From: Escherichia phage phiAPCEc03
Sequence record: NC_047754.1
DNA: 64,000 nucleotides
Strand: one strand, 5' to 3'
A program made the translations under genes and the position numbers. The notes beneath the pieces are model-generated. The model had not been told where the DNA came from. It searched no databases and saw nothing but the letters and a program-made list of their open reading frames with translations. The first letter of the stretch is position 1, and each line of letters opens with the position of its first letter. Below, one piece after another: positions 703-60,726 of the stretch.

Positions 703-708
703 AATTCT

Positions 709-786: not shown

Positions 787-807
787 TCTTGATTAGAGAG
801 GTTACAA

Positions 808-996: not shown

Positions 997-1005
997 GGAA
1001 ACTAT

Positions 1006-1191
1006 ATGTCTAAGTTTCAAGAACTCAAGCAAGAGCTAGAAGAATGTGTCTGTCCTGACTGTCTAGGAGTTGGGGAAGCCTCTGATGCAGAAGCAGGAGA
1101 TACTTTTTGCAATATCTGGGTTTGTCCTACATGCAAAGGCACAGGCATTAATCCTACCTGTGGTATTTCTCTAGATATTGAAAGAGGATAA
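1006..1191 (+). CDS. small zinc-ribbon protein
   Basis: 61-aa ORF with two CxxC pairs (CPDC, CPTC). Confidence 0.5.
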   Translation: MSKFQELKQELEECVCPDCLGVGEASDAEAGDTFCNIWVCPTCKGTGINPTCGISLDIERG

Positions 1192-1291
1192 TACCTGTGA
1201 AACTAAAAGATTATTATATTGGTTGGTTTGTGGGACTAGTAGTAGGATTTTCACTAGGCTATAATATGTATCAACTAATAAACTGATTACA

Positions 1292-1369
1292 TGGGGGTGT
1301 AATCGAATTGGCATACATACCGTCCTTAAAATTCAGGTTTTGAGGGTTCGAATCCCTTGTCACGCACCA
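1292..1369 (+). pseudogene. degenerate tRNA-like element (no pairing acceptor stem)
   Basis: Canonical T-arm GAGGG-TTCGAAT-CCCTT and 3-prime ACCA; D-arm segment AATCGAATTGGC shared with the tRNA at 1482; no complementary 5-prime acceptor strand found. Confidence 0.3.
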
Positions 1370-1379
1370 AATTTGATGG

Positions 1380-1445
1380 TCAGAGTAAACTAAACCTACT
1401 ATCTCGGTTGAGCTGTTTTAATGGGTTCGAATCCCAGCGAGGCGT
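1380..1445 (+). pseudogene. degenerate tRNA-like element
   Basis: T-arm TGGG-TTCGAAT-CCCA present but no acceptor stem and no CCA. Confidence 0.25.
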
Positions 1446-1481
1446 AACTGCCTGGTGTGATAGAGGCATCATCTTATTATT

Positions 1482-1572
1482 GGAAGAGCAAATCGAATTG
1501 GCGACGAAAACCGCTTGGAAAGTGGCTGACTGGTAAAACGGCTTGAGAGTTCAAATCTCTCCTCTTCCGCCA
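1482..1572 (+). tRNA. class II tRNA, probably tRNA-Ser (anticodon GGA)
   Basis: Perfect acceptor GGAAGAG/CTCTTCC, perfect T-arm GAGAG-TTCAAAT-CTCTC, CCA encoded; anticodon loop TTGGAAA; D-arm and variable arm parse imperfectly. Confidence 0.55.
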
Positions 1573-1579
1573 AACAAAT

Positions 1580-1669
1580 GGAAGGTAGGGCGTAGTGGTA
1601 CGCAACTAGTCTTGAAAACTAGCCCGCTGTAGTGATACGGTGATGGTTCGACTCCATTACCTTCCTCCA
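1580..1669 (+). tRNA. tRNA-Ser (anticodon UGA), long variable arm
   Basis: Acceptor GGAAGGT/ACCTTCC, anticodon stem CTAGT/ACTAG with loop CTTGAAA, T-loop GGTTCGACTCC, CCA encoded. Confidence 0.85.
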
Positions 1670-1687
1670 ACTTATAAGGAAAACCTT

Positions 1688-1891
1688 ATGAAACATATTG
1701 TTAAGTATACTGAAAGTGAACGTGGGTGGGGCGGTGAAATCTGGTATCGTGGCTTTGATTCTGAAGAAGAAGCTAGAGCTGAGGTTCATGATACTAATAA
1801 AAATCTGCCAAAAGATCATGTACCAGACTACTATATTCAGGCTAAGTATGACGGTGTTAAAGATAAGGTTCCTGAAGGCTATAAGTTTTAA
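1688..1891 (+). CDS. hypothetical protein
   Basis: ORF starting MKHIVKY with AAGGAAA RBS; the upstream part of the listed ORF overlaps the tRNA. Confidence 0.5.
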   Translation: MKHIVKYTESERGWGGEIWYRGFDSEEEARAEVHDTNKNLPKDHVPDYYIQAKYDGVKDKVPEGYKF

Positions 1892-1899
1892 ATAATTCT

Positions 1900-2030
1900 T
1901 GGAATATGCCGGAATTGGTAGACGGGACTGCCGAATAGGTTTACTAGGAACATCCACTCCTAGAAATATACCTTAAAAGCGGTTGAGTTAAATGGTCTAA
2001 CTCATGAAGGTTCAAGTCCTTCTATTCCTT
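1900..2030 (+). ncRNA. tRNA-like structured element (oversized, about 130 nt)
   Basis: D-loop-like AATTGGTAGA near the 5-prime end, perfect T-arm GAAGG-TTCAAGT-CCTTC near the 3-prime end, acceptor-like pairing GGAATA/TATTCC, but 80 nt of extra sequence with two hairpins in between and no CCA. Confidence 0.3.
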
Positions 2031-2259
2031 GATACATCAATGGCTCAAAGTGTAACGGTGCTATTTGATGCTCTTGGAAAGACTTTCCCGACAGGCGTTC
2101 GGGGGTAAGCTTCTGAGGCTAGAATAGAAGAGTTTCTGAGAGCCGCCACAATTGAAAATTCGTACTCGTCTTGAGCTGCGTGCAATAGGGGATAACTTGA
2201 TTAGTATTCTAGAACATGCTAATTGAGGATGGTTTCGCTAACCCTGCGAGTTTTCAATT

Positions 2260-2336
2260 GTGGCTATATCATAATTGGTTAATGATCCTGATTGTGAATC
2301 AGGCCTATGTGGATTCGAATTCCACTAGCCACCCCA
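2260..2336 (+). tRNA. tRNA-His (anticodon GUG)
   Basis: Acceptor GTGGCTA/TAGCCAC, D-arm TCAT-AATTGGTTA-ATGA, anticodon arm CCTGA-TTGTGAA-TCAGG, T-arm GTGGA-TTCGAAT-TCCAC, CCA encoded. Confidence 0.85.
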
Positions 2337-2361
2337 AATTAATTTAAATAGGAAATAAAAT

Positions 2362-2535
2362 ATGGCTGATTTCTGCAAACAATGCTCCATTGATATGTGG
2401 GGCAGAGATACTGGTGACTTAGCTGGTCTGATTACAGAAGCCGAAGTCAAAGAAGGTTATGGTGCAGTTGTGGTTTGCGAAGGATGCGGAGTCATTCGAG
2501 TAGATCATGAAGGTAAGCGCCTTGAAGAAGGTTAG
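2362..2535 (+). CDS. small zinc-ribbon protein (57 aa)
   Basis: ORF MADFCKQCS...CEGCG with two CxxC pairs; below the 60-aa cutoff of the ORF track. Confidence 0.4.
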   Translation: MADFCKQCSIDMWGRDTGDLAGLITEAEVKEGYGAVVVCEGCGVIRVDHEGKRLEEG

Positions 2536-2601
2536 CCAAGTCGGTTAAGGCTGGGGTCTCTGAAATCCTGATCAGTGGTTCAAATCCACTACCTTCTGCC
2601 A
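2526..2601 (+). tRNA. tRNA-Gln (anticodon CUG)
   Basis: Acceptor AGAAGGT/ACCTTCT, anticodon loop CTCTGAA, T-arm AGTGG-TTCAAAT-CCACT, CCA encoded. Confidence 0.7.
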
Positions 2602-2606
2602 AACAA

Positions 2607-2684
2607 TTGGGATTAGCTTAGCTTGGCCTAAAGCTTCGGCCTTTGAAGTCGAGATCATTGGTTCAAATCCAATATCCCCTGCCA
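2607..2684 (+). tRNA. tRNA-Gln (anticodon UUG), imperfect acceptor stem
   Basis: Anticodon arm TCGGC-CTTTGAA-GTCGA, T-arm ATTGG-TTCAAAT-CCAAT, CCA encoded; only 5 of 7 acceptor pairs form. Confidence 0.5.
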
Positions 2685-2691
2685 AATAATC

Positions 2692-2767
2692 GCGGTTAAG
2701 CACACGGGTTGTGTCGCAGGCCTTCCAAGCCTCGCTGAGTAGGGTTCGATTCCCTCTAGCCGCTCCA
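2692..2767 (+). tRNA. tRNA-Gly (anticodon UCC), tentative
   Basis: Acceptor GCGGTTA/TAGCCGC with one G-U, anticodon loop CTTCCAA, T-loop GGGTTCGATTCCC, CCA encoded. Confidence 0.6.
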
Positions 2768-2783
2768 ACTTTAAGGGAACACT

Positions 2784-3035
2784 ATGCACGTTTTTGAGTT
2801 TCGTAATAAAAGTACTGATAAGCGAGTTATCATTATTGGAGAAACATATCGAGCATATGAACAAACTGACGGCTCTGTTATCTTGAATGATGAGAAAGGA
2901 GGTTTTAGCTTTTATCCAGAAGAACCTTATGAAGAGTTTCGAAAACAATTTAACCTAGACTGGAGAAAGCATTTAAACACTGTTGCTCCATCTGTAGTAT
3001 TGCCAACTACCAGTACTGTACCCTCTAATGGCTGA
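2784..3035 (+). CDS. hypothetical protein
   Basis: 83-aa ORF with GGGAAC RBS-like sequence. Confidence 0.5.
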   Translation: MHVFEFRNKSTDKRVIIIGETYRAYEQTDGSVILNDEKGGFSFYPEEPYEEFRKQFNLDWRKHLNTVAPSVVLPTTSTVPSNG

Positions 3036-3192
3036 CAACCTAAAAGTAAAGATTGATAAACAAAAGAAACGTGTAGAAGTAGAGATTGGCGAAGAACGTG
3101 TTGCCTTTACTTTCGAGTTTCTTCAGCAGTTGGCTATGACAGTTATGACTGATAAGTCTCCTGTTATTGAAAAAGAAATCCCGTTGAAATAA
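3028..3192 (+). CDS. hypothetical small protein (54 aa)
   Basis: ATG overlaps the previous stop; ORF MADNLKVKIDKQ ends immediately before the next tRNA. Confidence 0.35.
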   Translation: MADNLKVKIDKQKKRVEVEIGEERVAFTFEFLQQLAMTVMTDKSPVIEKEIPLK

Positions 3193-3200
3193 CGGGTTCT

Positions 3201-3287
3201 GCTGGGTTGGCAGAATGGTTGAATGCACCTGATTTGTAATCAGGAGGAGTAATCCCGTTGCAGGTTCGAATCCTGTGCCCAGCACCA
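3201..3287 (+). tRNA. tRNA with anticodon UGU (Thr by anticodon) and an atypical long variable region
   Basis: Acceptor GCTGGGT/GCCCAGC, perfect anticodon arm CCTGA-TTTGTAA-TCAGG, T-arm GCAGG-TTCGAAT-CCTGT, CCA encoded; 15-nt variable region is unusual for Thr. Confidence 0.55.
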
Positions 3288-3301
3288 ATTTAAGGACTAT
3301 T

Positions 3302-3469
3302 ATGTTTAAACTGTTAGTAGTTATCTGGTATAGTCAATCAAATAGAGCGAATACCTCCCACGTTATAGACTTTAATACTAAAAATGAAGCTGAAAAAGCA
3401 TATGCTAATTTAATAGAACGCAATAAAGAATCTCGTAGTATAGTTTATGAAGTGACTAAACTTTATTAA
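3302..3469 (+). CDS. hypothetical protein
   Basis: ORF MFKLLVVIWY with AAGGA RBS; upstream part of the listed ORF overlaps the tRNA. Confidence 0.45.
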   Translation: MFKLLVVIWYSQSNRANTSHVIDFNTKNEAEKAYANLIERNKESRSIVYEVTKLY

Positions 3470-3477
3470 AAATTCAT

Positions 3478-3530
3478 TTGCTTTCTCTCTTATATTCTTG
3501 TTATAATATTTATATAAATTAATGAGAGGG
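3478..3530 (+). promoter_or_regulatory. T5-type early sigma70 promoter
   Basis: -35 TTGCTT, 18-bp spacer, -10 TATAAT, then conserved TATAAATTAATGAGAGGG box before the ATG at 3538. Confidence 0.6.
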
Positions 3531-3537
3531 AAACCAA

Positions 3538-3831
3538 ATGAAACGTTATCTTTCTGTTGTGTTCCAAACTGGTGGTCAACGCTATACCTATGAATTTCCT
3601 AGCTCTTGGAAGATCAAAGAAGGTGATCAAGTTGTTGTGTTAACACCGCGTGATGGGTACAAGGTAGTAACGGTTAAGCAAGTCTTCACAAAAGATTATG
3701 AACCGTCTAAGTCTATTAACTATAAGATGATTCATGGTGTAGTTCGTCAAGTACCACGAGCGGAAGTCGAAATCAAAGTAGATAAAGATGGTAAACTTAA
3801 ATATACCTCTTGCTTAGACGAGTTGCTATAA
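3538..3831 (+). CDS. hypothetical protein
   Basis: 97-aa ORF downstream of the promoter. Confidence 0.6.
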   Translation: MKRYLSVVFQTGGQRYTYEFPSSWKIKEGDQVVVLTPRDGYKVVTVKQVFTKDYEPSKSINYKMIHGVVRQVPRAEVEIKVDKDGKLKYTSCLDELL

Positions 3832-4037
3832 TGAGGATTACTTTCACAGAAAAGATCATGAGTAACGGTGTTATGATCATTACCGCATGGGATGGTAATC
3901 AGTGGTGTAGTGTTTCAGGTATTAAGCCTGAAGAACAAACACTAGAAAATATCTCAAAGATTAAGCGAAGAATGGCAGAACGTGCACGACTTCCAGGTGC
4001 ACCTAGAAATGGCAAACGTTCTGCTGTAAAATGTTAA
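3831..4037 (+). CDS. hypothetical protein
   Basis: ORF MRITFTEK; start overlaps the upstream stop (TAATG). Confidence 0.45.
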   Translation: MRITFTEKIMSNGVMIITAWDGNQWCSVSGIKPEEQTLENISKIKRRMAERARLPGAPRNGKRSAVKC

Positions 4038-4038
4038 T

Positions 4039-4115
4039 GCTTCGGTAGCTTAGCGATCTAAAGCACTCGGCTGATAACCGAGAGATCGGGGGTTTAAATC
4101 CCTCCCGGAGTACCA
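4039..4115 (+). tRNA. tRNA-Ile (anticodon GAU)
   Basis: Acceptor GCTTCGG/CCGGAGT with G-U pairs, perfect anticodon arm CTCGG-CTGATAA-CCGAG, T-arm GGGGG-TTTAAAT-CCCTC, CCA encoded. Confidence 0.8.
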
Positions 4116-4211
4116 AATTTAGGAATTAAGACTATGCGTCCAGGAAAGTTTAAAAAAGCTAATTGGTCTAAAGAGTATAAAGAATACTTACTTAGTCTAA
4201 TAAAACATAAT

Positions 4212-4287
4212 AGTTAGTTGGCAGAGTGGTTATGCACCTCCTTCATACGGAGCGACTACAGTGGTTCAAATCCACTACTAACTACCA
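4212..4287 (+). tRNA. tRNA-Met/Ile2-type (anticodon CAU)
   Basis: Acceptor AGTTAGT/ACTAACT, anticodon loop TTCATAC, T-arm AGTGG-TTCAAAT-CCACT, CCA encoded. Confidence 0.7.
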
Positions 4288-22382: not shown

Positions 22383-22981
22383 TCGGATTTGCACATTGTG
22401 TTTCTAGAAATTTATGGTCGGATTTGCACAAACGCCTAAGTTTTCAGGAACTCTTACTCTCCTGAAAATGGCAGCATTATTTCGGGCCGAAGGCCCGTGA
22501 TTGCCTGAGTTTTTAGAGTCACAATAATTTTCACTTGTCAAGCTATTTTGCCCCATTTAGCTAATAAAATTTTACTTTATCTGCACTTATCTCAAATTAA
22601 CCCAAATCTTCTCAACTCTTCCCCAAAATCCCCGCAAATCAGGTGCTCCGCACCAAACATGCACCTCTCCCACAGTTCCCCCAAGTTTCTCTCGCTCTCT
22701 CAACTTCTCCCCAAACTCATACAATCACACACCCTCCAATCGAAGTCACAAAAATCTTGTCGGATTCGCACAAATAAACCCCTGTCGGATTTGCACATAT
22801 TCTAGCTAATTCCACAGGATTGATGCGCAGCATCGGATTGCTGTAGTTTTTAGGAAAATTCATTGTCGGATTTGCACACTATAAAAATTTTTCGGGTCGG
22901 ATTTGCACACTACTAAAAATTGTCGGATTCGCACATACACGCCCACGCGTAACACCCGTGGAGCAATGTCGGATTTGCACA
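22383..22981 (+). repeat. iteron-like array: 8 direct copies of 13-bp TCGGATTYGCACA
   Basis: Copies start at 22383, 22428, 22759, 22785, 22866, 22897, 22923 and 22969, all in the same orientation within a noncoding region. Confidence 0.85.
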
Positions 22982-23033
22982 AAAGCGCAGGGCAATTGCC
23001 CTGCCCGCCTGAATGCAAATACAAATGAGAATC

Positions 23034-23165
23034 ATTCGCATTTAAAAAGCGGAATGAGAATGATAATGATTCGCATTTAAAAAGTGAAATGAAAATTATT
23101 CAGGAAGTGAAACGATTCTCATTTAAAAAGTGGAATGCAAATGATAGTGATTCGCATTTAAGAAC
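23034..23165 (+). repeat. 4 direct copies of ATTCGCATTTAAAAAG-containing unit
   Basis: Units at about 23034, 23069, 23115 and 23150, period about 35-45 bp. Confidence 0.75.
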
Positions 23166-23191
23166 GGAAGTGAGAAACACTGTTATTTAAG

Positions 23192-23273
23192 TTATCCACA
23201 GACTTATTAACCGCATAATTTGACTTGACAGAATCCTAGCCATTTTGAGGCGTTATTAACAGACTTATCCACA
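23192..23273 (+). promoter_or_regulatory. DnaA-box-like 9-mers (TTATCCACA), two copies
   Basis: Exact TTATCCACA at 23192-23200 and 23265-23273. Confidence 0.55.
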
Positions 23274-23442
23274 GCTTATCCTACTGTATAAATATACAGT
23301 ATTCCTACGCAGTGAATAATTCTAATATAGTCCTAAAACGTCCTAGATCGCATTCTAACGCGTTTAATTTTGGTGGGGATACTAAAACAAGGGGTTATCC
23401 GGTTGCAGGCGTGAAAAACGGGGATCTGCTCCCCGCTTGTTG

Positions 23443-50930: not shown

Positions 50931-53776
50931 AAAAAATACTAGATAGTGCTAGAAACTACTTAAAAAATAATAGCAGAATAAAAACTGCTAGTCTAATTTC
51001 CCTAGAATTACCTGGCTCTACTGGTACTAGTACTGCTTTTATTTATTTAACTGATTATTTTAGAGATGTACTATATAATGGTATTTTGTACCAGGCCGGT
51101 AAGGTTAAGTCCATTAGCACACATAAACAAAATAGAGATTTATCTATTGGCAGTCTATCTTTTACTATTACAGGTACAGCGCAGGATGAAGTACTAAAAC
51201 TAGTGCAAAATGGTGTATCCTTCTTAGATAGAACCGTATCAATTCATCAAGCAATTATTACTGAAGATGGTTCTATTCTACCAGTAGACCCCGATACAAA
51301 TGGTCCTTTACTATATTTTAGAGGGAGGATTACTGGAGGGGGTATTAAAGATAACATTAGTACCTCTGGAGTAGGAACCTCTACAATTACCTGGAATTGT
51401 TCTAACCAATTCTATGACTTTGATAGAGTTAATGGTAGATATACTGATGACGCTTCCCATAGGGGGCTTGAAGTTGTAGCTGGACAGTTAGTACCATCTA
51501 ATGGTGCTAAAAGACCAGAGTATCAAGAAGACTACGGCTTCTTCCACTCTAATAAAAGTATCTCTATCCTAGCAAAATATCAGGTTCAAGAAGAAAGATA
51601 CAAGCTAAAATCAAAGAAAAAATTATTTGGTTTATCTAGAAGCTACAGCCTTAAAAAATACTATGAAACTGTCACTAAGGAAGTGGATATAGATTTTAAC
51701 CTTGCTGCTAAATACATACCGGTGGTTTATGGAGTTCAAAAAATTCCTGGAATACCCATTTTTGCTGATACAGAACTACACAATCCCAACATAGTTTATG
51801 TCGTATACGCCTTTGCTGAGGGGGAGATTGATGGTTTTCTTGATTTCTCCTTTGGTGATAACCCTATGATCTGCGTAGATGCTAATGACAGCTCCGCTAG
51901 AACCTGCTTTGGTACTAAAAAAATAGCAGGAGATACAATGCAGAGGATAGCATCTGGAACCTCTTCTAGTAGTCCATCCGTCCATGGTCAAGAGTATAAG
52001 TATAATGATGGAAATGGTGACATAAGGATTTGGACTTATCACGGAAAATCTGATCAAACAGCCTCTGAAGTACTAGTAGATATAGCTAAAGAACGTGGAT
52101 TCTACCTTCAGAATATGAATGGCAATGGGCCGGAGTACTGGGATGCTAGATATAAGCTACTAGATACTGCATACGCAGTGGTGCGCTTCACTATTAATGA
52201 AAATAGGACTGAGATTCCAGAAGTTAGTGCTGAAATTCAAGGTAAAAAAGTAAAAGTCTATCATTCTGATGGTAGAGTAACTGCTAATAGTACTAGTTTA
52301 AATGGTATTTGGCAAACACTTGATTACTTAACCTCTGATAGATATGGCGCTAATATTACCATTGATCAGTTCCCCCTTCAGCAATTAATACAGGAAGCAT
52401 CTATTTTAGATATTATAGATGAATCCTATCAGGTATCTTGGCAGCCATATTGGAGATACGTTGGGTGGACTGATCCACTAGCAGAAAATAGACAAATAGT
52501 ACAAATGAATACTATTCTGGATACATCTGAATCAGTATTTAAAAATGTGCAAGGTTTGTTAGAGTCCTATGGTGGGGCTATTAACAATTTATCTGGCCAG
52601 TATAGGGTTACTGTAGAAAAATACTCTAATACTCCCTTAGAGATTAATTTTCTAGATACTTACGGTGATTTGGAGCTATCAGATACTACTGGTAGAAATA
52701 AATTCAACTCAGTTCAAGCATCTATCGTAGATCCCGCCCTTAGCTGGAAAACTAATTCTATTACATTCTATAATTCCAAGTATAAGGAACAGGACAAGAA
52801 CCTAGATAAAAAATTACAACTATCTTTTGCTAATATTACTAACTACTATACTGCAAGAAGTTTTGCGGATAGAGAACTTAAGAAATCCAGATACTCAAGA
52901 ACACTTTCTTTCTCATTACCATACCAGTTCATAGGGATTGAACCCAATGATGCTATTGCATTCACGTATGACCGTTACGGGTGGAACAGAAAGTATTTCC
53001 TAGTTGATGAGGTTGAAAACTCTAGAGAGGGTAAGATAAATGTTACCTTACAGGAGTATGGAGAGGATGTATTCATCAACTCTGAGCAGGTTGATAATAG
53101 CGGTAATGATATTCCTGATATTAGTAACAATGTCCTTCCTCCTAGAGACTTTAAATATACTCCTACTCCTGGCGGTTTAGTAGGCTCTATAGGTAAAAAT
53201 GGTGAGTTATCCTGGCTTCCGAGTCTAACCAATAATGTAGTTTACTACTCTATTGTGCACTCAGGCCATGCCGAACCTTACATAATACAACAGTTAGAGA
53301 CCAATCCTAACGAACGTATGATCCAAGAAATAATTGGGGAACCAGCAGGTCTGGCTATATTTGAGATAAGGGCAGTAGATATTAATGGTAGAAGAAGTTC
53401 CCCGGTGACTCTGTCTATAGAACTTAACTCTGCTAAAAACCTTAGTGTAGTATCTAATTTTAGGGTAACTAATACGGCCTCTGGGGATGTAACTGAGTTT
53501 GTCGGCCCAGATGTAAAACTAGCTTGGGATAGGATACCGGAAGAAGATATAATAGAGAGTATATTTTATACCCTTGAAATACACGATTCACAAAATAGGA
53601 TGTTAAGAAGTGTACGTATTGAAAATCAGTATACTTATGACTATTTATTAACGTATAATAAGGCAGATTTTGCTCTCCAGAACAGCGGTGCTCTAGGTAT
53701 AAATAGAAAATTGTATTTTCGTATTAGGGCTGAGGGGAATGATGGAGAACAGTCTGTGGAGTGGGCATCCATTTAA
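50927..53776 (+). CDS. baseplate hub protein (pb3-like)
   Basis: 949 aa, same as T5 pb3. Confidence 0.75.
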   Translation: MKKILDSARNYLKNNSRIKTASLISLELPGSTGTSTAFIYLTDYFRDVLYNGILYQAGKVKSISTHKQNRDLSIGSLSFTITGTAQDEVLKLVQNGVSFLDRTVSIHQAIITEDGSILPVDPDTNGPLLYFRGRITGGGIKDNISTSGVGTSTITWNCSNQFYDFDRVNGRYTDDASHRGLEVVAGQLVPSNGAKRPEYQEDYGFFHSNKSISILAKYQVQEERYKLKSKKKLFGLSRSYSLKKYYETVTKEVDIDFNLAAKYIPVVYGVQKIPGIPIFADTELHNPNIVYVVYAFAEGEIDGFLDFSFGDNPMICVDANDSSARTCFGTKKIAGDTMQRIASGTSSSSPSVHGQEYKYNDGNGDIRIWTYHGKSDQTASEVLVDIAKERGFYLQNMNGNGPEYWDARYKLLDTAYAVVRFTINENRTEIPEVSAEIQGKKVKVYHSDGRVTANSTSLNGIWQTLDYLTSDRYGANITIDQFPLQQLIQEASILDIIDESYQVSWQPYWRYVGWTDPLAENRQIVQMNTILDTSESVFKNVQGLLESYGGAINNLSGQYRVTVEKYSNTPLEINFLDTYGDLELSDTTGRNKFNSVQASIVDPALSWKTNSITFYNSKYKEQDKNLDKKLQLSFANITNYYTARSFADRELKKSRYSRTLSFSLPYQFIGIEPNDAIAFTYDRYGWNRKYFLVDEVENSREGKINVTLQEYGEDVFINSEQVDNSGNDIPDISNNVLPPRDFKYTPTPGGLVGSIGKNGELSWLPSLTNNVVYYSIVHSGHAEPYIIQQLETNPNERMIQEIIGEPAGLAIFEIRAVDINGRRSSPVTLSIELNSAKNLSVVSNFRVTNTASGDVTEFVGPDVKLAWDRIPEEDIIESIFYTLEIHDSQNRMLRSVRIENQYTYDYLLTYNKADFALQNSGALGINRKLYFRIRAEGNDGEQSVEWASI

Positions 53777-55833
53777 TGATTTCAAATAATGCACCAGCCA
53801 AAATGGTCTTAAATAGTATAATGACTGGATATACTTTGGCTTATGTCCAGCACTCCATTTATACTGATTATGATGTTATTGGTAGATCTTTTTGGTTAAA
53901 AATAGGAGAAAGTATAGATAGACGTGATTACACCGGTATAGATACTTTCTTCGTAATGATTAATAATCTAACCCCCTCTACCTCCTATGAGATTCAGGGG
54001 GCTTTCTATGACTCAATTATTGACTCAGAGTTACTGGAAGCTAAGATTGGTATCAACCTCTCTAATGAAACTAATTTTAGAACAAAGGAAAAGCCAATAA
54101 TTGTTGCAGCAAGATCTGAATCAGAACCCGTCGACGTTGGTGTTGGTGCTCCAATAGTTGTTGTAGAGACTGCTGGTGAAGCTAGTTACTGCACTATTGA
54201 ATTAAAAAGTACTGCATCAGAAGACAGTGAATGGGTTAAGTATTATATAGGTGCGCTGGGACCTACTATCAAATTTGGTGGTGTTCCTGTTGGAGACTAT
54301 AAGATCAGAATATCTGGTCAAGTTACGATGCCAGATGGTGTTACAGTTGACTCATCTGGCTATTATGAATATCCTAGCGTTTTCACTGTAGCTTATAATT
54401 TCGTACCACCTACTGCACCTACTAACATTGCCTTTAAAACTGCACGAATCGCAGACGGTAAGGAACGATATGATGTTAGAATAGAATGGGACTGGGAACG
54501 TGGTGCTGGTGCTAATGTCCGTGAATTTCTGGTTACTTATATAAACTCTGAAGAATACGCTAAGACTGGTTGGGCTAAAGCTCAAAAGATAAACGTTGGG
54601 GCTGCTAGAGCTGCAACAATTATATCATTCCCATGGAAAGTTGAGCATACTTTTAAGGTATCATCAATTGCCTGGGGACCAAATAAGCAAGATATAACAG
54701 AATCAGCTCCTGTAACATTTATATTGAATGAAGATACTCCTCTAGACAACAGCTTTGTCAATGAGACGGGTATTGATGTTAATTATGCCTTTATTAAGGG
54801 CAGCATGAAAGATGGAGAAATCTGGAGACAGACATTCTTAATCGATGCAGCTACTGGTGCTATTAACATTGGTCTGCTAGATGAAGAAGGAAAAGCACCT
54901 ATTTCTTTTGACCCTATAAACCGTGTTGTTAACGTTGATGGTAAAGTAATTACTAGAGATATTAATGCTGCGAACTTTATCATGACTAACTTATCTGGTA
55001 AGGATAACCCAGCAATTTACACTCAAGGTAAATCTTGGGGGGATAATAACTCCGGTATTTGGATGGGTATGGATAATACCTCTGCCAAAGCTAAGTTAGA
55101 CATTGGTAATGCCACACAGTGGATTCGTTATGATGGTGATGTGCTACGTATTTCTAGTGGAGTAGTTATTGGAACTCCTAATGGCGATGTAGATCTTGGT
55201 ACTGGTATGCAAGGTAAGCAAACAGTATTTGTTTATAAGTTAGCAACATCTCTACCTGCTAAACCACTAGAACAAGATTATCCGCCTCCTGGTTGGTCAA
55301 AAACTCCACCTAACCGTACAGATATGACACAAAATATCTATGCCACTACAGGTACACTTGATCCCGTTACTAACAAACTTCTTGAAGGTACTAGCTGGTC
55401 TGATGTAGTTCAGTGGAGTGGTACTGAGGGTACTATAGGACATGATGGACAACGTGGTCCTGGGATGTACTCCTTAGGTATTCCTGGTCTTGGAGGCTGG
55501 GATGATGGACAAGCTAATGCCTTCTTCCAGAATAACTTTGGTAGTCCTCCTGTTAGATATGATGTATTAACCGAATTTAATAGTAATGCTCCACAATCAG
55601 CATTTACCAGACAATGGAATGGATCTGGGTGGGTGAACCCTGCAATGGTTCTTCATGGGAACATGATTGTTAATGGAACAGTGACGGCAGATAAAATTGT
55701 AGCAGGAAATGCTTTCTTGTCTCAAATTGGTGTTAATATCATTTATGATAGAAATGCTGCGTTATCCTGGAATCCTGAGGCATACTACAAGATGAAGATA
55801 GACCTAAATAGTGGGTATATCCATATAAGGTAA
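53761..55833 (+). CDS. central tail fiber / baseplate protein (pb4-like)
   Basis: 690 aa, about T5 pb4 size. Confidence 0.7.
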   Translation: MGIHLMISNNAPAKMVLNSIMTGYTLAYVQHSIYTDYDVIGRSFWLKIGESIDRRDYTGIDTFFVMINNLTPSTSYEIQGAFYDSIIDSELLEAKIGINLSNETNFRTKEKPIIVAARSESEPVDVGVGAPIVVVETAGEASYCTIELKSTASEDSEWVKYYIGALGPTIKFGGVPVGDYKIRISGQVTMPDGVTVDSSGYYEYPSVFTVAYNFVPPTAPTNIAFKTARIADGKERYDVRIEWDWERGAGANVREFLVTYINSEEYAKTGWAKAQKINVGAARAATIISFPWKVEHTFKVSSIAWGPNKQDITESAPVTFILNEDTPLDNSFVNETGIDVNYAFIKGSMKDGEIWRQTFLIDAATGAINIGLLDEEGKAPISFDPINRVVNVDGKVITRDINAANFIMTNLSGKDNPAIYTQGKSWGDNNSGIWMGMDNTSAKAKLDIGNATQWIRYDGDVLRISSGVVIGTPNGDVDLGTGMQGKQTVFVYKLATSLPAKPLEQDYPPPGWSKTPPNRTDMTQNIYATTGTLDPVTNKLLEGTSWSDVVQWSGTEGTIGHDGQRGPGMYSLGIPGLGGWDDGQANAFFQNNFGSPPVRYDVLTEFNSNAPQSAFTRQWNGSGWVNPAMVLHGNMIVNGTVTADKIVAGNAFLSQIGVNIIYDRNAALSWNPEAYYKMKIDLNSGYIHIR

Positions 55834-55839
55834 TAAATA

Positions 55840-56262
55840 ATGAGTACTGAAAATAGAGTTATAGACTTAGTAATAGATGAGAAAGTACCTTATGGTCTAA
55901 TGATGCAATTCTTAGATGTTGATGATAGTACTTATCCCCCTACAAACACCCCTGTTAACTTAACAGGGTATTCTCTAAAGGGTACTATAAAGAATAGCCT
56001 TGATGAGAATGCGGAAACTTTGGCATCTTTTACTACTAAAATTATTGATGCTGCTCAAGGTGCTATAGCTATAAGTTTACCTGTAGAGGCGGTAGATAAT
56101 ATTGGTGAAAAAGCCACCAAAGAGAGAGATAAGTATAACCCTCGCCAACGTTTTGCAGGATACTATGATATAATTATGACACGAGATGTCATAGGATCAG
56201 CTATTAGCTCTTTTCGTATAATGGAGGGTAAAGTATTTATCAGTGATGGGGTAACTAGATAA
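55840..56262 (+). CDS. collar protein (p132-like)
   Basis: 140 aa, immediately upstream of the tail fiber genes. Confidence 0.55.
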
Positions 56263-58709
56263 TGGCAATAACTACTAAGATTATTGTACAACAAATATTA
56301 AATATTGATGATACTAAAGCTACTGCTAGTAAATTTCCTAGATACACAGTAACTCTTGGAAACTCTATTAGCTCTATTACTGCTATAGAGTTAGTATCCT
56401 CTATAGAGGCCGCTGCTAAATCTGCTGCGGCTGCAAAAGATTCTGAAATAGCTGCTAAAACCTCAGAACTTAATGCTAAGAACTCTGAACAGGAAGCTGC
56501 TATTTCTGCTGGAGCTTCAGAAGCTTCTGCTAATCAGTCTGCTACCTCTGCTACTCAGTCCGCAGCGTCAGCCAATAAGTCTGCAGAATCCGCTGCCGCA
56601 GCTAAAATATCCGAGACTAATGCGAAGACTAGTGAAACTAATGCGAAGACTAGTGAAACTAACGCGAAGACTAGTGAAACTAATGCTGACGCATCAGCTG
56701 CTGCTGCAAAAATTAGTGAGACTAATGCAAAGGCAAGTGAGACTAATGCAGCTCAATCAGCTGCTGATGCAAAACTTAGCGAGGGTAACGCAAAGGTCAG
56801 TGAGACTAATGCAGCTCAATCAGCAGCTGATTCTAGCGGTTTTAGGAATGAGGCGGAAATATTTTCTGGGCAAGCTGCTGCATCGGCATCTGCGGCAAAA
56901 ATCTCTGAAACCAATGCAAAAACCTCGGAAACAAAAGCTAAGGCTAGTGAAACTAATGCTGCGGGATCTGCAACTTCTGCTAGCCAATCTGTAGCTACTA
57001 TTCAAGGACTTAAATCAGATGTCGAACAGTTAAAATCTGATACCCAGGACATTAAAAATAGTGCTATAACAGAGACAACAGCTTTAAAAGCGGATGTCGA
57101 ACAGTTAAAATCTGATACCCAGGCCATTAAAAATAGCGCTATAACAGAGACAACAGCTTTAAAAGCGGATGTTGAGCAACTAAAAACAGATACACAAGGT
57201 ATTAAGGATAGCGCGGTATCTGAGACAACAACTTTAAAAGATCAAGCTGCTGCTTCTGCTGCACAAGCAGGTAATAGTGCTGTTGAGGCCGGGCAACAAG
57301 CTAGCAATGCTGCTGGTAGTGCAAATAGCTCTAAAGTAGAAGCAGACCGTGCAAAGGCAGAAGCAGACCGTGCGGAAGTTGCAGCTAATAGGGATCCTGA
57401 TCTTCAACCATTCCCTGACGTATGGATTCCATTTAATGACTCGCTTGATATGCTCGCAGGTTATTCACCCGGCTATAAGAAAATAACAGTTGGTGAAGAT
57501 GTTATTACAATGCCTTCTGATAAGGTTGTTAGTTTCACGCGTGCGTCAAATGCAACATACATAAATAAGCATGGTGAATTTTGTATTGCTAATATCGATG
57601 AACCCAGATTTGAAAAGCAAGGACTCTTGATTGAAGGCCAGAGGACAAATCACATTACTTTCAGTAATGACCCCGCTTCACTAAATACAGATAAGCACCG
57701 TAGTGATGTTACTTATAATGTTGATAAGTATGGTTTTGCATATGCAACGGCTACAGCTAACGAAAATTCACATGGTGAGTACCCTTCATTATTTTATTGT
57801 AAAACCGTGAATGCAATCAACTGTCAGCAAAATGAATATGTTTCTTTATCTATACGAGTAAAGGCAAACTCGGATATCTATATCACCCCACAATTTTATT
57901 TAGTAGGTAAGGATGGAGGTCTTATTCTCGGTGCTAGATCTTTCATAAGTTGCGAAACCGGCGAAGTTTCTTCTGTAGTAGAAGGGAGGGGGACTATAGC
58001 ACATAGAATATATAGAGAAGACAACGGATGGTTGAAAGTTGAAGCTATGTGTAAATTTGTAGAACGTGGAGGTAGTTCTATTGGATCTGTAAATTATTGT
58101 CGGAATAATGATCAACCTTCGCAAGTTGGGGATACAATATCATTTTGTACTCCGCAATTTGAAAAGGGTTTTTGTGCATCCTCCTTCATTATTACGGGAA
58201 GCACTCCTGCAACAAGGGCTCTGGATTATGTTACTATACCTGCAAGAAATAATTTCTCAGGGACGAATATTTCATTCCTTGCTGAGGTAAGTATCAACTG
58301 GAATAGCTTTCAATTAGATAATATATACCCAATGATAGTGGATAACAACCACTACTTCGTAAGAGGAAAAGCATTTGTTGCGGAATTTGACAGAACCTCC
58401 GTTACACCTTACACGTATGTGGTAACTGAGGATGGATCAACTATTCTGTCCAGAGGTTATTCATTTGAAAAACAATTTTCTCCACATGTATTTGGTTTTA
58501 TTCTCAGTGGCGATGTAGAGGTCACCTCGTTTGTTAATGGTAATAGTGGTGAGACCTCACACGGTTCTACCTGGAAAGGAACGGACTCGGACGCACTAGT
58601 AGAAATAGGCGGTAGACTTTCAGATTCAACTAAATTGTATGGTCATATTCGTAACCTTAGAATATGGAATAGAGTATTAACAGATAGTCAAATGCGGGAG
58701 AAAGTTTAA
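56262..58709 (+). CDS. L-shaped tail fiber proximal subunit (LtfA-like) with tandem coding repeats
   Basis: 815 aa; Ala-rich SETNAKT-type repeats and three 27-aa repeats (DVEQLKSDTQ.IKNSAITETTALKA). Confidence 0.6.
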   Translation: MAITTKIIVQQILNIDDTKATASKFPRYTVTLGNSISSITAIELVSSIEAAAKSAAAAKDSEIAAKTSELNAKNSEQEAAISAGASEASANQSATSATQSAASANKSAESAAAAKISETNAKTSETNAKTSETNAKTSETNADASAAAAKISETNAKASETNAAQSAADAKLSEGNAKVSETNAAQSAADSSGFRNEAEIFSGQAAASASAAKISETNAKTSETKAKASETNAAGSATSASQSVATIQGLKSDVEQLKSDTQDIKNSAITETTALKADVEQLKSDTQAIKNSAITETTALKADVEQLKTDTQGIKDSAVSETTTLKDQAAASAAQAGNSAVEAGQQASNAAGSANSSKVEADRAKAEADRAEVAANRDPDLQPFPDVWIPFNDSLDMLAGYSPGYKKITVGEDVITMPSDKVVSFTRASNATYINKHGEFCIANIDEPRFEKQGLLIEGQRTNHITFSNDPASLNTDKHRSDVTYNVDKYGFAYATATANENSHGEYPSLFYCKTVNAINCQQNEYVSLSIRVKANSDIYITPQFYLVGKDGGLILGARSFISCETGEVSSVVEGRGTIAHRIYREDNGWLKVEAMCKFVERGGSSIGSVNYCRNNDQPSQVGDTISFCTPQFEKGFCASSFIITGSTPATRALDYVTIPARNNFSGTNISFLAEVSINWNSFQLDNIYPMIVDNNHYFVRGKAFVAEFDRTSVTPYTYVVTEDGSTILSRGYSFEKQFSPHVFGFILSGDVEVTSFVNGNSGETSHGSTWKGTDSDALVEIGGRLSDSTKLYGHIRNLRIWNRVLTDSQMREKV

Positions 58710-58973
58710 GTGAAAGATATTAATTTACAATTCAAGGATGAAAAACATTATCTGGATGTTGTCGTTGATAGTGGGTGGCTTAAGACAAACTACGGTAACG
58801 TGTTTATAGATGAAATTGGTTTTATCCCTGTGGTAGACGACCCTAAAAGTAAAACCCCTGCTATTATTGGTAAAGAAGGTTATTACATAAATATAAGGGT
58901 AGGAGATAATATAGACTTGTCAGACATCGAACAATTCATTATTAAGAATCCCGATGTACGCAAATGGGCATAA
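58710..58973 (+). CDS. hypothetical small protein between tail fiber genes (GTG start)
   Basis: 87-aa ORF starting right after the LtfA stop. Confidence 0.35.
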   Translation: MKDINLQFKDEKHYLDVVVDSGWLKTNYGNVFIDEIGFIPVVDDPKSKTPAIIGKEGYYINIRVGDNIDLSDIEQFIIKNPDVRKWA

Positions 58974-58983
58974 GAGGTGATCA

Positions 58984-60726
58984 ATGACTACTTATACTAA
59001 TATCCCCCAGGATATTACAAAACTTAAAGACGAAAAGATGGATAAAAACAACAATTTATCCGATCTTGCAGACCGTGCAGCAGCATGGTTAAATGTGCGT
59101 CCTATTGGGTCCACCCCTCTTGCGGGGGATCCTGTTGGGGACTATGATGCCGCAACTAAACGTTGGGTAGAGAATAAGATTAACACCGGTACAGTCGGTC
59201 CCACTATGAATGGTGTTATGAATTACGGTGTTGGTGATTTCCACCTTCGAGATAGTCGTGCGTATATCCAGCCGTACGAGGTGGTTTCTGATGGTCAGCT
59301 TCTTAACAGGGCTGACTGGCCGGAGCTTTGGGCATACGCTCAAAGGGTTGGTGTTATAGAGGATTCGGTATGGTTAGCTTATAAATTCCAGCGTGGAAAA
59401 TACTCTAATGGTGACGGAGCAACAACTTTTCGTGTTCCAGATAAGAATGGGGTGCAGGAGGGATCAATACGTGCTCTTTATGGCCGTGGAGATGGCGGGA
59501 ATAGTGGTGCAAATGGGCAACTGTTCGAATCCGCTGCGCCTAATATTACAGGCTTTTTCACCACATATTCCGCTCAAACTTACGGCCAGGTATTAGGTAT
59601 GACAGGTGGTTCTTTTACCACAAGTAATAAAATATTTCCGGAAGGAAAAGGAGACGGTATACCCCCAGGCACAGCGCCGCTCGCTGGGCGTTATAATACC
59701 TGCGACTTCAATGCCTCAATGTCAAGTCCGATTTACGGGGCATCAACTGATGAGATTCTTACACGAAACTTTGTCGGCGTGTGGGTAATACGGGCGTCCG
59801 GTGGTTTCGTTGCGGCAAATACATCATGGAGTGTAATAAACGCTGATGCTGCCAAACCTCCTACTGGTACAGTTGTAAGGGGTGGTAGTGTGAAGTCAGA
59901 ATACAAGATTGGCACAACTACTACGCATCAAGCATATCTGCAATCTTACGGAAAGATTGATGGATTGACGTCTGAACAAGGTGCAGTTATATCAAACGGG
60001 GTTCAAGAGTGGTCATTTAATCAAGCTGGGACTTTGTACTTCCCAAGCGCAGAAACTCAAATTGGCACGCTAAGGTCTGATGGCGCGCTACAGGTTAACG
60101 CATACGTACGAGCAAAAGACTTCGTTGCACAGCCATTAAACTCTGTTGGAGTTGCCGCTATAGAAAGAAACGCCATCAGAATGATTAACTACGCGAATGT
60201 GTCAGAAGGGTATTATGTAAACACTATAAGCGGCGATTGGTACGATGGAAGCTGGATATTTGGTGGTATTCGCTCCGGTAATAGGTTGTTAGATAGGGTA
60301 CAGCTTAATGTCTATAACGGAATCGGAGGAGCTGCATCTTATATTTTTGGGACGGATGGTATAGCAAAAGGTCAAGAATGGAGAAACTTATCCGACAAAC
60401 GCATTAAAAGTAATATTGAGCGTATAAACGATCCACTATCTAAGATGCGAAACATTAAAGGGGTTAAATGGGTACTAGAAACAAACGGCTCAGTTGGGTA
60501 TGGATTTATTGCTCAGGATGTAGAGAAAGACTTTCCTGAAGCAGTATCTGAAACTCAGTCATCACCTGTTACTCTGCGCGACGGTTCGACGTTGGATAAC
60601 ATAAAATCTGTTAATATGCCAGGTGTAGCAGCTGCACTGCACCACGAGGCGATACTTGCTTTGATGGAAAAGGTGGAGAACCTAGAAGCAGAATTAGCTG
60701 CATTAAAAGAAGCGAATGGTTCCTAA
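58984..60726 (+). CDS. tail fiber distal subunit (LtfB-like) with C-terminal intramolecular chaperone domain
   Basis: 580 aa; C-terminal segment SDKRIKSNIERI...GYGFIAQDVEKDFPEAV resembles the autoproteolytic chaperone domain of phage fibers. Confidence 0.6.
   Translation: MTTYTNIPQDITKLKDEKMDKNNNLSDLADRAAAWLNVRPIGSTPLAGDPVGDYDAATKRWVENKINTGTVGPTMNGVMNYGVGDFHLRDSRAYIQPYEVVSDGQLLNRADWPELWAYAQRVGVIEDSVWLAYKFQRGKYSNGDGATTFRVPDKNGVQEGSIRALYGRGDGGNSGANGQLFESAAPNITGFFTTYSAQTYGQVLGMTGGSFTTSNKIFPEGKGDGIPPGTAPLAGRYNTCDFNASMSSPIYGASTDEILTRNFVGVWVIRASGGFVAANTSWSVINADAAKPPTGTVVRGGSVKSEYKIGTTTTHQAYLQSYGKIDGLTSEQGAVISNGVQEWSFNQAGTLYFPSAETQIGTLRSDGALQVNAYVRAKDFVAQPLNSVGVAAIERNAIRMINYANVSEGYYVNTISGDWYDGSWIFGGIRSGNRLLDRVQLNVYNGIGGAASYIFGTDGIAKGQEWRNLSDKRIKSNIERINDPLSKMRNIKGVKWVLETNGSVGYGFIAQDVEKDFPEAVSETQSSPVTLRDGSTLDNIKSVNMPGVAAALHHEAILALMEKVENLEAELAALKEANGS

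Follow-up and report, generated by a model that had tools for sequence, protein, structure and literature searches.

In-frame tandem repeats in the predicted coiled-coil shaft of a T5-like lateral tail fibre gene

The window analysed here, a stretch of 64,000 nucleotides from a T5-like phage (Tequintavirus), holds a lateral tail fibre gene in which several units are repeated in tandem without loss of the reading frame. What part of the fibre do these repeats build, and what would a change in their number do to it?

The fibre gene and its repeats

The genes of this region follow the order pb4, LtfC collar gene, LtfA-type fibre gene, second fibre gene. The genes, together with the two ends and the neck of the fibre protein, are as follows.

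53761-55833, pb4, straight-fibre gene (PF24168-PF24171)
55840..56262, + strand, LtfC collar protein gene (PF23926 LtfC, E = 3.7e-15)
56262..58709, + strand, LtfA-type lateral (L-shaped) tail fibre gene, 815 aa (ORF, homology)
56262..56381, + strand, N-terminal anchoring domain of the fibre, aa 1-40 (homology to DT57C LtfA aa 1-40)
57396..57671, + strand, highly conserved neck, aa 379-470, starting PDLQPFPDVWIPFNDSLD (alignment)
57672..58706, + strand, C-terminal beta-rich, lectin-like (LamG / concanavalin A-like) putative receptor-binding region
58710..58973, + strand, 87-aa ORF that travels with the fibre cassette (phrog_1361)
58984..60726, + strand, second, LtfB-like fibre gene, whose product ends in an S74 intramolecular chaperone (PF13884, phrog_6921)

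The initial annotation had called the gene LtfA-like, and our results support this assignment. The N-terminus of the product is homologous to LtfA of phage DT57C (PDB 8HQZ chain d; aa 1-212 align with its residues 1-226 at E = 8.1e-34), the genes for pb4 and LtfC lie upstream, and the second fibre gene, bearing the S74 domain, lies downstream. The protein is also matched over aa 3-815 by phrog_1419, annotated 'tail protein' (E = 8e-227), and at its N-terminus by phrog_5481 and phrog_24369, and the gene shares 93.5% nucleotide identity with its tail fibre counterpart in phage ESCO40. A domain search located PF13884, the S74 chaperone, in the second fibre gene product (aa 470-521, E = 8.9e-12) and found it absent from the 815-aa protein. 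Since the chaperone is encoded by the next gene and not by this one, the protein is LtfA-type and not pb1-type. By analogy with the genetics of DT57C (PMC4728585), the second fibre protein would be attached to LtfA. The position of the 87-aa ORF between both fibre genes is identical in T5-like and Queuovirinae phages.

The anchoring domain, whose role is insertion under the LtfC collar (PMC10713586, PMC12750041), contains two short strands in our structural model (aa 28-32 and 35-39). The neck holds most of the invariant columns of the homologue alignment and was modelled as a monomer with low confidence (pLDDT 25-45). In the C-terminal region, PF13385 (Laminin_G_3) is found at aa 655-810, and the fold of the region matches those of laminin LG4-5, neurexin, pentraxins and Pseudomonas phage tail fibres.

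Three kinds of unit are repeated between the anchor and the neck.

56601..56684, + strand, 21-bp / 7-aa units AK(I/T)SETN, one diverged and three near-exact (TRF, unit alignment)
56643..56831, + strand, 63-bp / 21-aa higher-order repeat, three copies, AKxSExNAKxSETNAxxSAAx (TRF)
57018..57242, + strand, 75-bp / 25-aa units DVEQLK(S/T)DTQxIKxSA(I/V)(T/S)ETTxLKx, three copies (TRF)

That the fibre gene carries in-frame tandem coding repeats was borne out, far above chance. The best in-frame self-match of the long unit was 73/75, compared with a maximum of 52/75 after 300 shuffles of the region's codons, and that of the short unit was 41/42, compared with a maximum of 32/42 among codon shuffles. 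These repeats are the top-scoring tandem repeats of the entire 64-kb window.

The 21-bp unit, GCGAAGACTAGTGAAACTAA(T/C), encodes AKTSETN. Three near-exact copies (56622-56642, 56643-56663 and 56664-56684, with identities of 21/21, 20/21 and 21/21) are preceded by a diverged fourth one (56601-56621, AKISETN, 13/21 nt), and TRF describes the array as having a period of 21, 3.4 copies and 96% matches at 56616-56686. About four copies had initially been placed at 56631-56700; the count is fair, but the array begins some 10-30 nt before 56631. It is nested in the 63-bp (21-aa) repeat (TRF period 63, 2.9 copies, score 227), which had been missed, and the in-frame self-identity of the surrounding heptad array peaks at lags of 21, 42, 63, 84 nt and onward.

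The long array had been described as three near-identical 81-bp units of 27 aa at 57005-57240. Three tandem copies are indeed present (57018-57092, 57093-57167 and 57168-57242; TRF period 75, 3.0 copies, score 313), but the unit measures 75 bp or 25 aa, and the motif as spelled in that description itself has 25 letters, not 27. Near-identity holds for copies 1 and 2 only (73/75 nt, 97%), copy 3 matching them at 55-56/75 nt (~74%) and 18/25 aa. Between copies 1 and 2 there are 2-4 nt differences in the window, ESCO40 and T5_ev219, against 8 in NBEco002, FFH1 and AKFV33; orthologous copies show 2-4 nt differences as well. Because orthologous and paralogous copies are similarly divergent, homogenisation is inseparable from conservation here and we do not carry a reading of concerted evolution.

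A predicted shaft and its length among relatives

Both repeat arrays belong to one shaft of about 330 residues, which the initial annotation did not see.

56382..57380, + strand, predicted alpha-helical coiled-coil shaft, aa 41-373, holding every repeat (model helices, heptad register)
56400..56999, + strand, Ser/Ala heptad array, 29 heptads, aa 47-246 (heptad counts)
56817..56843, + strand, predicted helix break, aa 186-194, SAADSSGFR, beside GFRNEAEIF (DSSP of the model)
57243..57395, + strand, distal end of the shaft, Ala/Ser heptads, aa 328-378 (heptads, model)

In the monomer model the helix begins at aa 41 and the chain forms helices at aa 41-185 and 195-373, while the heptad register (for coiled-coil periodicity rules, see PMC4786415) begins at about aa 40-47. 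The start of the shaft is homologous to DT57C LtfA, in which a helix runs from T40 in a three-helix coiled coil (PMC10713586), and to T5 pb1, whose coiled-coil domain spans residues 41-218 (PMC12750041). Taken together, heptads, model and homology predict that aa 41-373 form a trimeric coiled coil. The 25-aa units are its most confident part (pLDDT 82-87); they present a V/L/I/A seam, and their seam periodicity of 25/7 was reached by 0.1% of shuffles. The helix break adjoins the GFRNEAEIF motif, which is kept in relatives, and may possibly act as a hinge.

The repeats are most probably in-frame tandem duplications in the coiled-coil shaft of a T5-like LtfA, giving stepwise change in shaft length. 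The shaft would join the N-terminal anchor, clamped under the LtfC collar, to the lectin-like receptor-binding end. Units may be gained and lost through replication slippage or unequal recombination between near-identical copies, and selection would retain only those indels that amount to whole helical turns (7 residues in 2 turns, 11 in 3, 18 in 5, 25 in 7 and 36 in 10), because these would keep the three-helix seam in register. Each heptad would then contribute about 1 nm and each 25-aa unit about 3.7 nm, for a shaft of some 49 nm in this phage. Such changes would alter how far the receptor-binding end reaches, and perhaps how flexible it is, while leaving anchor and binding domain untouched; it is in this sense that we infer, with the initial annotation, that the repeats may tune fibre length or flexibility.

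Comparison among relatives shows that copy number varies by whole units; homologues number roughly 2,900. The 25-aa unit is present in 0, 1, 2 or 3 copies across relatives; relative to the window, the proximal shaft differs in length by multiples of 7 aa and the distal shaft by 11, 18, 25 or 36 aa. Anchor motif and IQGLKS are separated by 96, 103, 110, 124, 173, 194, 201, 208 or 215 aa, distances that are all equal modulo 7; this agreement was seen in 46 of the 63 clustered proteins carrying both motifs, and the 215-aa distance and further in-phase cases come from viral contigs outside these 63. The segment from IQGLKS to LKD measures 20, 31, 42, 53, 56, 67, 74, 81 or 103 aa, lengths that correspond to 31 plus combinations of 11, 18, 25 and 36. 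Exact gains or losses are also visible, the phage genomes L022 and L023 (97.4% identical over the fibre stretch) differing by exactly one 21-nt and one 108-nt unit and AKFV33 being without exactly one 63-nt unit. Some relatives have nearly no shaft at all, and SelmaRatti indicates that viable phages can dispense with it. Out-of-phase indels were found as +3 aa in one clade, +2 aa in one protein and a 10-aa deletion in AKFV33. An IMG/VR scan returned mostly isolate genomes already sampled, with little independent sampling beyond L022 and L023.

These whole-unit differences across the family agree with the earlier description of the repeats as a hotspot for length variation, but the closest relatives (ESCO40, NBEco002, FFH1, PH204, P0002 and P0003) all have the copy number of the window. 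Given this invariance, turnover is not fast and the locus does not appear hypervariable.

The same structure could have arisen as neutral filler, unit gain and loss being drift, helical phase the sole constraint and no length being tuned. We regard this as possible, though we doubt it. Nearly shaftless natural phages do grow: LtfA of SelmaRatti (537 aa) has the anchor fused directly to the last heptads, with nearly no shaft in between, and the proteins of P0005, P0081, P0089 and P0090 (~557-561 aa) are almost shaftless. Shaft length follows clade rather than any clear property. On the other hand, IQGLKS lies at aa 247 and the first 25-aa unit at aa 253 exactly, even in diverged shafts such as that of T5_ev219, and such conservation of length across diverged relatives hints at stabilising selection within lineages.

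The Ser/Ala seam, frame-shifting insertions and the alternative frame

The proximal part of the shaft differs from ordinary coiled coils in its seam, which consists only of Ser and Ala with two Phe and contains no canonical hydrophobic residues. This, and the low confidence of the monomer model over aa 100-240, are what one would expect if the region were a flexible, low-complexity or otherwise folded linker and not a coiled coil. A Fourier test on hydrophobic residues was not significant for this part (power 0.85, shuffle maximum 1.73), but such an analysis is uninformative here and counts by heptad position are decisive. Position 1 is Ser in 27 and Phe in 2 of the 29 heptads, and position 5 is Ala in 23 and Ser in 5 of 28. 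A strict 7-residue phase thus runs across 29 heptads, relatives' indels are multiples of 7, the region is continuous with the three-helix bundle observed in DT57C LtfA as well as with the coiled-coil domain of pb1, and the model (pLDDT 41-61 for the Ser/Ala part) is helical throughout. We consequently consider a linker improbable. A nearly pure Ser/Ala seam across 29 heptads makes this an unusual coiled-coil sequence.

Two more active roles can be envisaged for shaft repeats. In the first, they would be a fast and adaptive length dial matched to O-antigen or capsule thickness, and the out-of-frame partial-unit insertions of three public genomes would be real and provide a reversible on/off switch of the fibre. 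We give this little credit. In the second, the repeats would be a contingency locus that toggles LtfA by frame-shifting slippage. Frame-shifting insertions do fall exactly within the repeats in three public genomes, and on rough hosts phages can do without lateral fibres (PMC10713586), but each unit length (21, 63 and 75 nt) is divisible by 3, so that whole-unit slippage is never frame-shifting. The frame-shifting insertions are instead partial units, typical of mis-joined assemblies, and smooth hosts were used to isolate the phages that carry them. Phase variation is thus very unlikely.

Could repeat expansion or collapse at assembly have produced the copy numbers of the window itself? Assembly errors would be in keeping with the out-of-frame partial-unit insertions in the repeats of I14 (+28 nt), SP15 (+94 nt) and WP85, with the several public records that terminate inside the fibre gene, and with the PH204 record, which is cut within the repeats and has a 111-bp terminal overlap. 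The gene of the window, in contrast, is uninterrupted and in frame, and at every residue it is colinear with those of ESCO40, NBEco002, FFH1 and PH204 and with two metagenomic proteins, all from independent sources. Colinearity with at least six independent sequences indicates that the arrangement is not mis-assembled, contrary to a concern raised initially, and we hold an artefact here to be highly improbable. In T5-like phages the repeats nonetheless cause short-read assemblies to break or go wrong, and as frameshifts or contig ends occur here in several public records, a long-read check of fibre genes is advisable before host range is inferred from them.

One further reading concerns an alternative frame of the heptad array.

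56473..56994, + strand, alternative-frame ORF, 173 aa, not a gene (+1 frame relative to the fibre gene)

We reject the idea that this ORF is an overlapping gene encoding a real protein served by the repeats, and find it scarcely credible, on the basis of the substitution pattern and the scarcity of codons able to create a stop. In the window and in three of the six relatives checked, the +1 frame runs open through 180 codons, and a fully open +1 frame over aa 64-245 occurred in just 1.65% of codon shuffles; in the other relatives it is open for 149 and 167 codons and is broken at 94 in NBEco002. Substitutions relative to four relatives, however, concentrate at third codon positions of LtfA, and residue changes are about three times more numerous in the +1 frame (12, 34, 21 and 52) than in the LtfA frame (4, 12, 8 and 23). 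Only three codons in aa 64-245 could create a stop in the +1 frame, Val, Leu, Ile and Met codons being nearly absent from the region, and the product would be a low-complexity string of Leu, Arg and Gln. The ORF behaves as a compositional by-product, in agreement with its initial description as an artefact of repetitiveness.

Comparison with known fibres

DT57C LtfA (PDB 8HQZ chain d; PMC10713586, PMC4728585) is the nearest described system. Both proteins have a homologous N-terminus and an anchor under the LtfC collar, both contain in-frame tandem repeats, and in both phages a second fibre gene (ltfB in DT57C) lies downstream. In DT57-1/2, a sister of DT57C, a laboratory-selected mutant gained one copy of a 19-aa repeat in LtfA (PMC4728585). 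Kinship is nevertheless confined to the first 100-200 residues: DT57C LtfA has 1076 aa and a different distal part, and its repeat is the 19-aa motif VDSALADKADIATTYTKME, whereas the shaft of the window is longer and made of 7-, 21- and 25-aa units. The tandem VDSALADKADIATTYTKME motif was absent from the translation of the window fibre, which did not align significantly with the corresponding part of 8HQZ_d.

T5 pb1 (Ltf; PMC12750041, PMC4690869) has the same order of anchor (1-40), coiled coil (41-218) and distal receptor-binding part, and both are lateral fibres with surface sugars as their ligands. The coiled coil of the window fibre (aa 41-373) is about twice as long as that of pb1, there is no counterpart to the 500-angstrom beta-rich fibre domain of pb1, and the distal end is lectin-like (LamG), unlike that of pb1. 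The C-terminal S74 chaperone, on the same protein in pb1, is found on the next gene in the window.

The repeats are an ordinary feature of phage fibres, of a known kind, and their wider biological weight is limited, because variable-length coiled-coil shafts are well known in such fibres. T4 fibritin (gpwac) is a trimeric alpha-helical fibre in which the number of segments sets length differences among related phages; it has no sequence kinship to the window fibre, occupies another place in the virion with another role, and has a canonical hydrophobic seam. Segmented coiled-coil fibres such as fibritin are cited in PMC10713586. The coiled-coil rod of the T7 tail fibre gp17 (PDB 7BOZ) showed marginal similarity (window aa 268-377 to gp17 164-265, weak, E = 0.05), and phage family and attachment differ. 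A literature search for heptad-quantised tail-fibre repeats returned nothing specific.

The distal part of the window fibre has its counterpart in the lateral fibres of Queuovirinae (Nonagvirus BRET gp23, Seuratvirus SA126VB_22 and phiG7_32). Their distal shaft, with one 25-aa unit, their neck and their lectin-like end, with 84% aa identity over 524 aa, are shared with it, as are both downstream genes. Their N-terminal attachment domain is a different one (PF08400), and their shaft is short, with one 25-aa unit or its 11-aa sub-repeats as against three 25-aa units in the window. From the natural indel spectrum (7, 11, 18, 21, 25 and 36 aa, and near-total deletion) one can read the shaft lengths that are tolerated, which is useful for fibre engineering and for swaps of receptor-binding cassettes between Tequintavirus and Queuovirinae. 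Recombination breakpoints at the boundary of copies 2 and 3, read from megablast endpoints at gene nt 899-903, were considered and dropped, since these endpoints mostly reflect the difference in copy number, Queuovirinae fibres having IQGLKS directly before their single unit. In binned comparisons, identity between Queuovirinae and the window is 73-80% across the unit and reaches at least 93% only from about nt 1080.

The LtfA-type fibre gene and its tandem repeats

The strongest tandem repeats anywhere in the 64-kb window (periods 21, 63 and 75 bp) lie inside a single fibre gene, which the initial annotation had called LtfA-like. This label is correct: DT57C LtfA (PDB 8HQZ chain d) aligns to residues 1-212 with E = 8e-34, and the neighbouring genes agree with it. 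The S74 domain of T5 pb1 is absent from the 815-aa protein, which is hence of the LtfA and not of the pb1 type. The gene's DNA shares 93.5% identity with the ESCO40 (Escherichia phage) tail fibre gene; for the counterparts in the Tequintavirus members NBEco002, FFH1, AKFV33, SP15 and PH204, identity is 91-96% along most or part of the gene.

Features in and around the fibre gene (window positions)
53761-55833, 5' side of the fibre gene: straight fibre pb4, four PB4 Pfam domains
55840-56262, 5' side: collar protein LtfC (PF23926)
56262-58709, + strand: LtfA-type fibre gene, 2.4 kb (ORF, 815 aa)
56616-56686: TRF array, period 21, 3.4 copies, 96% matches
56651-56831: TRF array, period 63, 2.9 copies
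57018-57240: TRF array, period 75, 3.0 copies, 87% matches
58710-58973, 3' side: 87-aa ORF, phrog_1361 (function unknown)
58984-60726, 3' side: second fibre gene, S74 intramolecular chaperone domain (PF13884)

When aligned by codon, the 21-bp unit (AKTSETN) is found in three in-frame copies one synonymous base apart (56622-56684), next to a diverged AKISETN copy (56601-56621). The four copies proposed initially are hence real as three plus a diverged fourth, but they span 56601-56684 instead of 56631-56700. The longer repeat had been described as three near-identical units of 81 bp (27 aa). Its three in-frame copies (57018-57092, 57093-57167 and 57168-57242) stand, but the unit measures 75 bp (25 aa), the larger figure being a miscount since the motif as then written has 25 letters. 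Furthermore, only copies 1 and 2 are near-identical (73/75 nt), copy 3 sharing 55-56/75 nt with them. The best in-frame self-matches over 75 and 42 nt reach 73 and 41 identities, against maxima of 52 and 32 when the codons of this region were shuffled 300 times.

The ORF at 56473-56994, set aside in the initial annotation as an artefact of repetitiveness, is indeed a compositional by-product, arising where the Ser/Ala-rich stretch is read in the +1 frame. Because aa 64-245 contain almost no Val, Leu, Ile or Met codons, a +1-frame stop could arise from only three codons there (two ATA and one GTA). Substitutions relative to ESCO40, NBEco002, FFH1 and T5_ev219 fall mostly on third positions of LtfA codons, changing 12, 34, 21 and 52 residues, respectively, in the +1 frame versus 4, 12, 8 and 23 in the LtfA frame, and in NBEco002 the +1 frame is interrupted. 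Together with the scarcity of stop-capable codons, this makes a genuine gene very unlikely.

Shaft, neck and distal end

Residues 47-246, set out seven to a row, make up an unbroken series of 29 heptads, with Ser (27) or Phe (2) at position 1 and Ala (23) or Ser (5) at position 5. In-frame self-identity of the shaft DNA peaks at lags of 21, 42, 63, 84, 105, 126 and 147 nt, and also at 75 nt; the AKTSETN and 63-bp units are the youngest copies inside this heptad array. In the 25-aa units the seam is of the conventional V/L/I/A kind and is spaced 3,4,3,4,3,4,4, which makes three heptads and one four-residue 'stutter', or 25/7 = 3.57 residues per turn; power at period 25/7 was matched by 0.1% of shuffles.

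An AlphaFold2 monomer model, built from a 60-sequence alignment, has short strands at aa 28-32 and 35-39, helices at 41-185 and 195-373 and a beta-rich C-terminal part, with pLDDT of 82-87 over the 25-aa units versus 41-61 over the Ser/Ala heptads. In DT57C LtfA a long helix starts at T40 and contributes to a three-helix coiled coil that extends outward from the collar (PMC10713586). In T5 pb1, residues 1-40 are the anchoring domain and 41-218 the coiled-coil domain, after which comes a fibre domain (PMC12750041). Since heptads, model helices and both structures agree, we read aa 41-373 as a putative coiled-coil shaft, probably trimeric by analogy and nearly twice as long as the coiled-coil domain of pb1. 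As coiled coils rise by ~0.148 nm per residue, it would measure about 49 nm. The shaft's only two Phe, both at seam positions, belong to a conserved motif, SSGFRNEAEIF (aa 186-201, window 56817-56864), which adjoins the only predicted helix break and may be a hinge or docking point.

Between the shaft and the distal end lies a neck (aa 379-470, window 57396-57671), the most invariant stretch across 60 homologues from T5-like phages and Queuovirinae. It is poorly modelled as a monomer (pLDDT 25-45), and is possibly a trimer-only fold or a docking site for the second fibre. Residues 655-810 match Laminin_G_3 (PF13385), and fold matches to the modelled C-terminal part include laminin LG4-5, neurexin LNS domains, pentraxins, a neurotoxin binding domain and Pseudomonas phage tail fibres. 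Sequence and model thus point to a lectin-like, putative receptor-binding distal end.

Copy number and shaft length among relatives

Of 2,885 homologues identified by protein search, the 120 best cluster representatives were compared, and 75 of these have the T5-type N-terminus. The initial annotation had called for a comparison of copy number among isolates, and copy number is indeed not invariant: these 75 proteins contain 0, 1, 2 or 3 of the 25-aa units, and differences are mostly of whole units. Where the neck motif is the same, the distance from IQGLKS to PDLQP is 82, 107 or 132 aa, in exact 25-aa steps. From SSIEAA, in the anchor, to IQGLKS we measured 96, 103, 110, 124, 173, 194, 201 and 208 aa, and in a single viral contig 215. 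These values, which share one remainder modulo 7, account for 46 of the 63 proteins having both motifs; 16 others carry three extra residues (a 'stammer') and one carries two. IQGLKS-to-LKD lengths (20, 31, 42, 53, 56, 67, 74, 81 and 103 aa) equal 31 plus combinations of 11, 18, 25 and 36. Indels of 7, 11, 18, 25 and 36 residues amount to 2, 3, 5, 7 and 10 helical turns at 3.5 to 3.67 residues per turn, periodicities that a coiled coil can accommodate (PMC4786415).

In the DNA of AKFV33, exactly one 63-nt unit is missing, along with 30 nt of the AKTSETN array. Two viral contigs, L022 (110,901 bp, with two 36-aa units of 25+11) and L023, share 97.4% identity in the gene's first 1.1 kb and differ by exactly one 21-nt and one 108-nt unit. 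At the extreme, the 537-aa LtfA of SelmaRatti (Bas34; locus L008, 1501-3114) has its anchor (aa 1-48) fused straight to the last shaft heptads, a deletion of ~278 residues joined between two Ala-rich heptads, and several metagenomic relatives are nearly as shaft-less. On the other hand, the nearest relatives (ESCO40, NBEco002, FFH1, PH204, P0002 and P0003) have exactly the window's arrangement. The suggested hotspot of length variation therefore holds family-wide, and sometimes between close genomes, but the region is not hypervariable.

The same agreement among nearest relatives argues, on sequence grounds, that the window is correctly assembled here, against the mis-assembly that the initial annotation had considered. 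Three public records (I14, SP15 and WP85) carry out-of-frame partial-unit insertions exactly inside the repeats (+28 nt at gene nt 829 in I14, +94 nt at gene nt 505 in SP15), and their fibre gene is annotated in pieces. These may be real knock-outs, but mis-joined assemblies, more typically than slippage, produce partial-unit insertions that break the frame. Inside the 75-bp array, several records or contigs of Salmonella phages come to an end, and the PH204 'complete genome' is cut within the heptad array, with a terminal overlap of 111 bp. The I14 record is labelled Felixounavirus, though its fibre locus is T5-like.

The repeats are thus in frame, inside a heptad-phased helical shaft, and relatives differ by whole units. 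Slippage, or unequal recombination, between copies that are nearly identical would add and remove units, the freshest substrates being 75-bp copies 1 and 2 and the three 21-bp copies. Only changes holding the helical seam in register would persist, and shaft length would change stepwise, each heptad counting for ~1 nm and each 25-aa unit for 3.7 nm. A precedent exists in DT57-1/2, whose LtfA gained a repeat of its own, a 19-aa motif, for which a compensatory effect was proposed (PMC4728585). Shaft length could be tuned to the host surface, and its exact conservation among diverged relatives hints at constraint; alternatively, it could merely drift. Since viable shaft-less phages exist, growth on laboratory hosts does not require a shaft.

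The initial interpretation is hence essentially right, with corrected numbers, and the repeats are an ordinary case of a known kind, the modular, length-variable coiled-coil shafts of phage fibres. Two details go mildly beyond the published descriptions that we found, namely an indel spectrum cleanly quantised in helical turns and a seam made almost purely of Ser and Ala.

Kinship with Queuovirinae and other observations

From IQGLKS onward, the window has its distal shaft, neck and lectin-like end, as well as the two genes that follow, in common with Queuovirinae (Nonagvirus BRET, Seuratvirus SA126VB and phiG7), with 84% aa identity over 524 residues of the fibre and at least 93% DNA identity from ~nt 1080. 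Contrary to the window's fibre, those of Queuovirinae have another N-terminal attachment domain (PF08400) in place of the T5-type anchor, and one 25-aa unit or its 11-aa sub-repeats instead of three units; BRET (locus L011, 1804-3975) has three sub-repeats, TQxIKxxAVxE. The single-unit form is therefore common to both families, the extra units being T5-like expansions.

A three-gene cassette (distal LtfA, the phrog_1361 ORF and the S74-chaperone fibre) occupies window 57018-60726 and recurs in the BRET (L011) and SA126VB (L012) loci, spanning Tequintavirus and Queuovirinae (Nonagvirus and Seuratvirus). Always placed between two fibre genes, the 87-aa product may be an assembly factor.

Elsewhere in the window, an ORF-poor region (22750-23300) contains two families of iteron-like direct repeats, TGTCGGATT(C/T)GCACA (about 6-7 occurrences, 22758-22988) and ATTCGCATTTAAAAAG(C/T)G(G/A)AATGA (about 5 occurrences, 23023-23176, with a 14-nt inverted repeat), which makes it a candidate for a replication origin, or for a regulatory region, in the T5-like genome. 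A tRNA cluster (614-4287, + strand) comprises 8 genes: Ser x2, His, Gln x2, Thr, Ile and Met.
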